Shown one piece after another: positions 8,963 through 10,466 of a DNA stretch of 64,000 bases. Origin of the DNA: Candidatus Limnocylindrales bacterium (lineage in GTDB: Bacteria > Chloroflexota > Limnocylindria > Limnocylindrales > CSP1-4); the NCBI GenBank assembly GCA_049514315.1, contig JBEKVD010000001.1, positions 4,380 to 68,379 on the forward strand, given 5' to 3'. The translations under genes were made by a program, and so were the position numbers. The stretch's first letter is position 1. Each line of letters opens with the position of its first letter. The notes beneath the pieces were generated by a model. The model saw only the letters and a program-made list of their open reading frames with translations, was not told the origin of the DNA and made no database searches.

Positions 8963-9592
8963 CTAAGCCTTCGCTTCGCGTCCTTCGAGTCCCTCGATCG
9001 CCGCCAGCGCAGCGCGCCAGCCGACGTCGATGTCACGCTCCTCGCCACCGAGGTAGATGCGGCCCATCGAGCCGAAGGCCCGCACTTCGAGGATGTTGAT
9101 GTGAGCTGCCTTCTCCGCCTCGTTGGCCGCGAGCGCGGCGTAGGCGGCGGGTTCGAGCTCCAGCACGTAGAGCGTCTGGCCGGGGATCAGCATCTGGCCG
9201 TGACGCGTCCGGTTGATGAGCTGGGCCTGGTGGTCGTCGATCCGGCGGATGATCTGCGAGGACAGGACGCGCGGCTTGATCCGGTCGGTTTCGGCCAGGC
9301 CAATCTCGGCGAGGATCGCGCCGCCGGCGGCGCGGACCTCGGCCTGCGACGGCGAGTGGATCTCGAGCATGCCGTAGTAACGCTCGATGATCTGCATGCC
9401 GGGCTTGACGGTCGTCGACTTGAGGGCGATATCGGTCAGCCGGTTGATCTCGATGCCGGGCGAGACCTCGACCGAGAGCGAGGCGTCGCCGGCGAGCGGC
9501 AGGAATCCCTGCGCGACCGTCCCCAGGAAGGCGGCGTACTGGGCCTGGAGGCTATCCAGGAAGACGTAGGCTCGAAGGTCAATATTGCCCAT
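8963..9592 (-). CDS. BMC-T shell protein, circularly permuted tandem BMC domains (EutL/PduB-like)
   Basis: 209 aa. The C-terminal segment [45 protein letters not shown] parallels the EutL permuted-domain stretch (AYLVAPPLEATYGIDAALK...). The length and position inside the shell-gene block support the call. Confidence 0.6.
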
Positions 9593-10466
9593 GTGCGCCC
9601 TTCTCTCCGGTGACGATCTTGACGCCGGCGGAGGCCCCGATCCGGGTCGCCCCGGCTGCGATCATGTCCTGGACCTCCTCGACGGTCCTGATGCCGCCGG
9701 CGGCCTTGACGCCCATCTTCGGGCCGACCGTCTCGCGCATCAGCGCAACGTCGAAGACTGTTGCACCGCCTTTCGCGAACCCGGTGGACGTCTTGACGAA
9801 GTCCGCCCTGGCTTTCTGAGCGAGGCGGCAGGCGATCACCTTCTCCTCGTCGGTGAGGAGGGCGGTCTCGATGATCACCTTGCAGAGGGCGCCCGCCTCG
9901 TGGCAGGCGTCGGCGACGCGGGCAATGTCCTCGCGGACCTGGACCTGCAGCCCGCTCTTGAGCGCGCCGATGTTGATGACCATGTCGATCTCGCGGGCGC
10001 CGTCCCGGATTGCCCGGCGCGCCTCGAAGACCTTGATCTCCGTCGGCGTGGCGCCGAACGGGAAGCCCACGACCGAGGCGACTCCGACGCCGGAACCATG
10101 CAGATCGTCGGCGGCGCGGCGAACCCAGGTCGGGTTGACGCAGACCGCGGCGAACCGGAACTCGGCAGCCTCCGCGCACAGCTTGTCGATGTCGGCGACC
10201 ACGGCGTCCGGCCGAAGTAGCGTGTGATCGATGTATCGGGCGAGGTCCGTCGGGACGTCGGCCGCCTGGCCGTGGAACTCGACCCGCGACGCGCCCCCGG
10301 CCACGACGTCGCGGACTTTGGCCGCGCACTGGGCGGCGCACGCACCGCTGCATCCGGCACATGTTCCGCCGTGGACGCCCGGACTGCCGGGTGCGCCCAG
10401 AGAAACGAGCACCTGACGTGTAATCGACTCGACGAGCTCGTCGCGAGTGTAGGTCGCCTCCGTCAT
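9579..10466 (-). CDS. deoC: Deoxyribose-phosphate aldolase (DeoC/DERA) with ~70-aa N-terminal extension (encapsulation-peptide-like helix plus Cys-rich linker)
   Basis: The DERA core runs from ...[14 protein letters not shown]. The Schiff-base lysine motif [10 protein letters not shown] and the AAVCVNP motif are present. Upstream of the core are an amphipathic helix [16 protein letters not shown] and a linker [18 protein letters not shown]. Confidence 0.85.

Follow-up and report, generated by a model that had tools for sequence, protein, structure and literature searches.

Few bacterial microcompartments (BMCs) are as widespread as those of the sugar-phosphate-utilisation (SPU) type. In their signature enzyme, the aldolase DERA, the N-terminal extension has up to now been taken for no more than an encapsulation peptide. 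According to Dwyer, Sutter and Kerfeld (2024), all SPU DERAs have such an extension, of about 70 residues, which these authors interpreted in this way (PMC11585597). In their hands, full-length SPU DERA was insoluble in E. coli and the extension-less enzyme was a soluble active dimer that still bound RPI; aldolase activity was demonstrated for the related SPU6 enzyme, in the form without extension only (PMC11585597). The main text of that paper uses 'cysteine' and 'metal' in other contexts only and does not mention Fe-S, iron or zinc, and two large BMC catalogues make no mention of a cysteine motif. The extension is already known, but a description of its cysteine site seems to be missing from the searchable literature. 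Here, we analyse a DERA (deoC) encoded in a window of 64,000 nucleotides, i.e. the whole stretch of DNA that was studied, from a Candidatus Limnocylindrales bacterium of the Chloroflexota (contig JBEKVD010000001.1, positions 4,380 to 68,379), in which an earlier note had pointed to four clustered cysteines. Our results suggest that this site is broader than first noted and is probably a metal-binding knuckle inside the described targeting extension.

A conserved cysteine site at the head of a module

The product of the gene, 295 residues long, matches PF01791 from residue 78 to 282 (75 bits, cut-off 23.8), the deoC equivalog TIGR00126 (277 bits, cut-off 117.3) and 37 solved DERA sequences of the PDB (E down to 8.5e-77). 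The latter align only from about residue 74 (to 290), so that residues 1-73 form an N-terminal extension and the cysteine motif lies inside it. Residues D161, K225 and K254, invariant in a 61-sequence alignment, are the catalytic triad of Asp, Schiff-base Lys and Lys (D102, K167 and K201 in E. coli), and correspond to D165, K229 and K258 of the assayed Chloroflexi enzyme (PMC11585597). Both its extension and its locus point to an SPU cargo DERA, with encapsulation and activity on deoxyribose 5-phosphate being predicted.

The four cysteines (C36, C39, C43 and C47) have the C-x2-C-x3-C-x3-C spacing claimed in the earlier note and span 12 residues, not the 13 given there; canonical DERA lacks the motif. 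The note had also allowed for a true start codon downstream of the motif. This is contradicted by the DERA ATG (10464-10466), which overlaps the RpiB stop codon as ATGA, by the sequence GGAGAGG 7 nucleotides upstream, and by the MTE...LVE.ITR.VL N-terminus, kept from Met1 in 119 of the 120 nearest homologues. The start codon is upstream of the motif, which is translated.

The motif itself is found in 119 of the 120 closest homologues (73-100% identical), the lone exception being N-terminally truncated. Using the 45-residue module described below as a query, we retrieved 46 species-level genomes of Chloroflexota (Limnocylindrales and relatives), and each intact DERA in them has the motif as well. 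Lack of conservation among orthologues of related loci, which the note had envisaged, is thus not what we observed. The four codons vary synonymously between TGT and TGC with zero replacements, whereas the positions between and before the cysteines show 3-10 different residues, with 5-10 at flanking positions. Hence, the motif is under strong purifying selection. Cysteine is rare in the operon, with 21 of the 2152 residues of its proteins, and 4 of these 21 are in the DERA motif. Among the six-frame open reading frames (ORFs) of at least 100 residues in the window, four other stretches have at least four cysteines in 13 residues, all outside identified genes; they resemble Arg-rich alternative reading frames, as far as their coding status can be judged by eye only. 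The DERA motif is more than a product of chance.

The position of the cysteines within the extension has to be revised, since the earlier note placed them in a linker. The first cysteine is found anywhere from residue 30 to 58 among homologues, and the Gly/Ala/Pro stretch preceding it is highly variable in length. In contrast, the segment from three residues before the first cysteine to the start of the barrel has exactly 45 residues and no indel in all 102 of 102 unique sequences. The true linker therefore ends just before the motif, which heads a conserved module (consensus C..C...CA..C..[KR]VR..[VI][VI]..GA.R[VI].[YF].G....VP.DLA). We searched 1.84 billion cluster representatives with a profile of the module and retrieved only DERA N-termini, plus two repetitive long proteins that we judged spurious, which indicates that the module is not shared with other cargo enzymes. 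On the other side of the linker, the core of the encapsulation helix, LVE.IT.EVL, is common to all homologues.

The part of the module that follows the cysteines shows a weakly supported resemblance to the barrel. The best self-match of DERA residues 48-66 (10269-10325, minus strand) is to residues 262-280 (9627-9683, minus strand), the alpha7-beta8 unit of the barrel. The score of this match was reached by 10 of 2000 shuffles, BLASTP gave it an E-value of 2e-4 (for the single pair), and hhalign a probability of 21%. In other phyla the extension reads AGA[AS]RIG, which is nearer to the AGATRIG of the barrel. These matches weakly suggest that residues 48-66 may be a partial internal duplication of the barrel unit.

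Variants of the site in other lineages

The earlier note considered that the cysteines may be specific to this compartment, a view that does not survive a broader comparison, because Acidobacteriota, Anaerolineales and others have microcompartment-type DERAs with equivalent sets of four cysteines. When divergent members were used as seeds, two further searches produced about 180 additional N-termini. All of them share an LVE.IT.EVL-type helix, a short spacer and a [KR]V..VV.aGA.R...IDHTLLKPDA segment, and every cysteine pattern sits directly before the conserved [KR]-V-x-x-V-V-x-x-G-A-x-R segment. The spacing of the cysteines differs between lineages. Besides the Cx2Cx3Cx3C type of the window, there are CxCx3Cx3C (MCGCTSECF[HN]RCPER, n=29; named sources Pyrinomonadaceae and Acidobacteriota), Cx3Cx4Cx3C (QCKFDCADQLCVRVCYDR, n=23; named source Anaerolineales), CxCx6CC (CACHAVLYECCPDR, n=20; named source Vicinamibacterales), and two further four-cysteine spacings, CxCx4Cx3C and Cx4Cx3Cx3C.

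Cysteines may also be exchanged or lost. Some N-termini have three cysteines and a His (CADCHGSCAAHS; CGCTPHTLAC), others two cysteines and a His (DCSPHALAC), and those of Acidimicrobiia have one or no cysteine (SDICxxPEKLR; YDMAETGEKVR). The Cx2Cx3C sequences that have lost the last cysteine all read C-[AV]-[AV]-H-[SN] (9 out of 9), with the His adjoining the lost residue, and a separate clade reads C-G-C-T-P-H-x-L-A-C, which is a Cys/His exchange. When aligned with the Cys4 forms, the Acidimicrobiia form differs by a single clean deletion of 10-12 residues, the remainder being kept. This Cys-less DERA is encoded in an operon of identical gene order, whose proteins are 54-83% identical to those of the window. 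Arg61 (10284-10286, minus strand) belongs to the GA.R motif of the extension and is kept in 124 of 124 sequences aligned across several phyla, even in lineages without the cysteines.

Several of these types were placed in their genomic context. The Cx3Cx4Cx3C form of locus L050 is part of an SPU6-like locus with a GntR/UTRA regulator, RPI, DERA, an aldehyde dehydrogenase (AldDH), BMC-H, BMC-Tdp and three BMC-P. Two acidobacterial types are RpiB-DERA pairs that lack shell genes within a distance of 10 kb. In the RPI-DERA chimera P0153, the helix and the Cx2Cx3Cx3C motif are kept between the two domains. Many database entries (P0121-P0301; loci L047-L050) are short fragments, are frameshifted, or start downstream of the true ATG, as in the DERAs split into 184 and 86 residues in L047 and into 177 and 204 residues in L050; automated annotation thus hides the extension and its cysteines. 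Clustering at 50% identity merges full-length members with ordinary DERAs.

Possible metal binding and alternative roles of the cysteines

The explanation that we favour, to which we give about even chances, is that the four cysteines would be the ligands of a compact tetrahedral metal site with an architectural role, most likely a structural Zn(Cys)4 knuckle, a mononuclear Fe being possible. A ligand count of four is retained over at least five spacings, plus the Cys3His variants, with the four Cys/His within about 15 residues. The combination of a constant number of cysteines, variable spacing and Cys/His exchange, the latter being typical of metal sites, points to a tetrahedral metal site. 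Together with the fixed position relative to the following helix, the His beside the lost fourth cysteine and the wholesale excision, the constant count has the signature of a four-ligand metal site, unlike what a helical packing face or a generic patch of thiols would show, and the deletion of 10-12 residues in the Acidimicrobiia-type orthologue suits an autonomous metal-binding loop. The metal or Fe-S centre put forward in the earlier note fits this comparative pattern of four cysteines across phyla, changing spacing and His substitutions. Such a site is presumably not catalytic, judging from the truncated SPU6 enzyme, since removal of the extension leaves a soluble, dimeric, active and RPI-binding protein (PMC11585597).

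According to this model, the metal site would nucleate a small folded module, running from the knuckle to helix 48-56 and to one or more strands, with the encapsulation helix and its flexible linker on one side and the DERA barrel on the other. The knuckle could thereby give the extension a defined shape for cargo-core assembly or docking. A conserved site with four ligands would imply that the extension includes a cofactor-dependent folded element. When we modelled the protein with AlphaFold2 (AF2) from 61 close sequences, the entire extension had a predicted local distance difference test score (pLDDT) below 50. With 124 sequences, of which 65 were diverse N-terminal fragments, helix 8-24 reached about 77 and a helix was predicted at 48-56, while residues 24-45 and 61-68 stayed below 50. 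A fold that depends on a cofactor could explain why confidence is low at the knuckle but improves in the helices on either side. This result agrees with the low-confidence 'two beta strands' previously reported in the extension (PMC11585597).

Several points weigh against a structural metal site. Intrinsic disorder would explain the low AF2 confidence just as well, and AF2 often builds Zn sites without the ion, which it does not do for this knuckle. The module matches no Pfam, NCBIfam or PDB family in single-sequence and profile searches; those with the extension yield chance matches only, namely a BMC-domain helix (E 0.037), nanobodies, a Cys-rich ribosomally synthesised and post-translationally modified peptide (E 0.075) and DUF7796. 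A stand-alone Cx2Cx3Cx3C metal motif was not found in the searchable literature. The bound metal, its identity and the architectural role are inferred. The His adjoining the lost cysteine could be phylogenetic baggage, because the loss falls within the CAAHC clade. Finally, there is an orthologous operon that works in the absence of the knuckle, whose role, if it has one, is thus dispensable or compensated.

Four conserved thiolates might instead bind an Fe-S cluster or a redox-active Fe. In this case the extension, whose knuckle occurs in several spacings on DERAs from at least three phyla, would serve as a lumenal sensor of redox state or oxygen, or as an electron carrier, disposing for example of the electrons of the NADH made by AldDH. 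We consider this unlikely. In many lineages a Pro follows the last cysteine (C-P-[DE]-[KR]), as is common in ferredoxin motifs, but the x2/x3/x3 spacing is not the CxxCxxCxxxCP of ferredoxins. Furthermore, with E-values of up to 10 allowed, DERA still had no match to Fer4 or to any other Fe-S family, and Cx2Cx3Cx3C is found in the searchable literature only inside longer Alvin-type ferredoxin strings. The operon and the 36 Pfam-scanned ORFs of the window encode no PduS, phosphotransacylase, alcohol dehydrogenase, flavoprotein or ferredoxin. The recycling of NAD+ and CoA is therefore not evident from the locus, and that of NAD+ could be a task for such an element, which has a precedent at this very position in the flavoprotein domain on the N-terminus of DERA in Asgard and Myxococcota-derived SPU systems (PMC12747264). 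Yet, no flavin- or NADH-binding partner was found that could feed a cluster, and a single Cys4 centre cannot itself oxidise NADH. Beside four other DERA types that we examined, PduS, flavoprotein and ferredoxin were not found either, the shell proteins of the operon are nearly Cys-free, and the Cys-less orthologous operon has the same set of shell proteins and enzymes. Cys-to-His exchange and deletion of the whole knuckle are more usual for structural Zn sites. Many carriers belong to soil lineages generally regarded as aerobic, where a cluster exposed on a 12-residue loop would be labile.

The electron relay suggested in the earlier note drew on the shell protein PduT, which holds a cluster at its pore. 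The PduT-like protein of the operon reads AGTVHPGKYLVLVGG at this position, with VHPGK(Y) instead of the CPGK of Salmonella PduT (TICPGKFLLMLGG); the cluster-ligating cysteine is thus a His. This His, never a cysteine, is present in 33 of the 33 related loci where the motif was matched, and also in locus L047, which encodes a Cys-less DERA. TIGR02526 matches the PduT-like tandem BMC protein at 1.5e-31, below the family cut-off. Three His at the pore of the trimer might coordinate another metal or just act as a gate. A relay through PduT was rejected in view of the replacement of the cysteine by His and of the fact that PduS was not found in the window; a relay from DERA has no visible partners and is not supported.

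Redox-sensitive disulfides, also raised in the earlier note, are possible and less favoured. Two reversible bonds, either metal-free or formed after an Hsp33-like release of metal, could act as a redox switch that alters cargo aggregation or activity in a presumably more oxidising lumen. This would account for an even number of cysteines conserved at variable spacing, and CxC...CC arrangements could staple a hairpin; carboxysome cargo such as CcmM uses lumenal disulfides. We regard the switch as quite improbable, because several lineages have three cysteines and a His, or two and a His, unlike obligatory pairs, and because no thiol-oxidoreductase was found among the 36 Pfam-scanned ORFs of the window. 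The insolubility of the full-length protein in E. coli (PMC11585597) could also be taken as a sign of disulfides, but it is already explained by the encapsulation helix. The cysteines might otherwise form one face of a helix (i, i+3, i+7, i+11) used for packing or for the oligomerisation of DERA by metal or disulfide bridges, or serve as sacrificial thiols for acetaldehyde or crotonaldehyde. E. coli DERA is inactivated by crotonaldehyde at Cys47, which corresponds to C109 of the window protein. Spaced 3-4-4 and separated by small residues (Ala, Gly, Ser), the cysteines would fit a single face, and DERA is a dimer (PMC11585597). However, AF2 gives no helix for residues 36-47, the CxC, CC and x6 spacings found elsewhere break the face, and a stoichiometric sink of thiols needs neither a fixed count nor clade-specific spacings. 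These possibilities thus seem very improbable to us, and the helical face was dropped as the main model on account of the CxC, CC and x6 spacings of other clades.

The operon and its comparison with known systems

The gene order of the operon is SorC regulator, RpiB-like protein, DERA, CcmP-like BMC-Tdp, BMC-H, BMC-P, AldDH, PduT-like BMC and two BMC-P (Table 1). It is identical across the 46 Chloroflexota loci, as far as each contig reaches. In the RpiB-like protein, an Asp takes the place of Cys66, the catalytic residue of E. coli RpiB. With BMC-H, BMC-T, three BMC-P, an acylating AldDH and an RPI without catalytic cysteine, the locus matches the setting of SPU cargo. All SPU RPIs are without this cysteine and are nearly inactive on ribose 5-phosphate (PMC11585597). 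Translational coupling along RpiB, DERA and the shell is suggested by two overlaps, one of 14 nucleotides (9579-9592) between the 3' end of the DERA gene and the start of the gene for the CcmP-like shell protein, the other of 4 nucleotides between the 5' end of the DERA gene and the RpiB stop codon.

Table 1. Features of the DERA gene and its operon, in window coordinates
Feature	Position	Strand	Basis
SorC/DeoR-type sugar-binding regulator, operon head	11088..12083	-	PF04198; syntenic
RpiB-like protein with its own N-terminal encapsulation helix, Asp for catalytic Cys	10463..11095	-	PF02502; sequence
Shine-Dalgarno sequence GGAGAGG, 7 nucleotides upstream of the DERA ATG	10474..10480	-	sequence read
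DERA (deoC), 295 residues, predicted SPU-type microcompartment cargo enzyme	9579..10466	-	ORF; PF01791; TIGR00126; PDB matches
Amphipathic helix, probable encapsulation peptide, residues 8-24	10395..10445	-	AF2 helix, pLDDT ~77; conserved core
Variable Gly/Ala/Pro linker, residues 25-35	10362..10394	-	variable length; gapped alignment columns
Cys4 motif (putative knuckle), residues 36-47	10326..10361	-	invariant Cys, synonymous codon changes; AF2 pLDDT <50
Conserved helix and strand segment, residues 48-77, R61 invariant	10236..10325	-	no indels; AF2 helix 48-56
DERA TIM barrel, residues 78-295 (from IDHTLL), and stop codon	9579..10235	-	Pfam, TIGR and PDB matches; AF2 pLDDT 80-98
CcmP-like BMC-Tdp	8963-9592	-	
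BMC-H	8584-8892	-	
BMC-P (first)	8232-8579	-	
Acylating AldDH with N-terminal helix	6756-8219	-	
PduT-like tandem BMC with VHPGK	6130-6759	-	
BMC-P (two further)	5842-6126 and 5543-5845	-	

Several sister genomes encode a second DERA paralogue. This DERA-like protein, about 45% identical, is found 0.5-1.5 kb downstream of the shell genes in L003 (15926-16822), L005, L006, L007, L009, L010 and L043; that of L003, the sole one inspected, lacks the N-terminal extension, with neither encapsulation helix nor Cys motif. In the window, the operon is followed instead by a gene for a histidine/aromatic ammonia-lyase (3916-5439). About 23 kb from the operon, an ORF (33260-34573, minus strand) encodes a [NiFe]-hydrogenase large-subunit domain (PF00374), with no obvious connection to the microcompartment.

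If the cysteines form a metal-binding knuckle, this may have several consequences for the study of SPU compartments. The insolubility of the full-length enzyme in E. coli might be due in part to the knuckle, as might the poor AlphaFold models, both links being speculative. The knuckle would offer a handle for dissecting the packing of DERA, including the natural Cys-less orthologue of Acidimicrobiia, and is relevant for the re-use of SPU DERA extensions as targeting tags. Were the metal redox-active, the knuckle might gate the condensation or assembly of cargo by redox or oxygen state. It would then also bear on the handling of reducing equivalents in metabolosomes without PduS or alcohol dehydrogenase, with a possible part in disposing of the electrons of NADH in SPU compartments that lack these proteins and a Cys-bearing PduT.

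Among known systems, the PduT/PduS (MNdh) conduit belongs to the same kind of organelle, and this operon encodes a PduT-like tandem BMC protein. However, the clusters of the conduit sit on shell and flavoprotein components, whereas the Cys4 site sits on a cargo aldolase; moreover, PduT has CPGK where the protein of the operon has VHPGK, and no PduS was found in the window. In size and spacing, the putative DERA knuckle resembles short structural Zn sites, such as the Gag knuckle (Cx2Cx4Hx4C), the lobe of medium-chain alcohol dehydrogenases (Cx2Cx2Cx7C) and the Cys4 lid of Gram-positive adenylate kinases. In these sites four Cys/His lie within about 12-15 residues, are non-catalytic and tolerate Cys/His exchange. 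The lid of adenylate kinase has its site in some lineages and has it replaced or deleted in others, as is the case for the DERA knuckle. The DERA site differs from them in that its metal is predicted, it shares no sequence or profile similarity with them, and x2/x3/x3 is not a described signature.

The closest relatives are the SPU DERAs themselves, which are of the same family and have an extension of about 70 residues, composed of an amphipathic helix and a short, poorly modelled part (PMC11585597). Their loci also encode a Cys-less RPI, an acylating AldDH, BMC-H, BMC-T and three BMC-P, and the L050 variant is in an SPU6-like locus like theirs. The subtype of the window differs by its SorC regulator, its CcmP-like Tdp, its PduT-like Ts and an AldDH whose encapsulation peptide is N-terminal. 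Finally, the SPU-type compartments of Hodarchaeales have flavoprotein-DERA fusions (PMC12747264). There too, an additional module of cofactor type is N-terminal to the compartment DERA, with the encapsulation helix between this module and the barrel; the fusion consists of a full flavoprotein domain, whereas the DERA of the window has merely a Cys4 knuckle of 12 residues.

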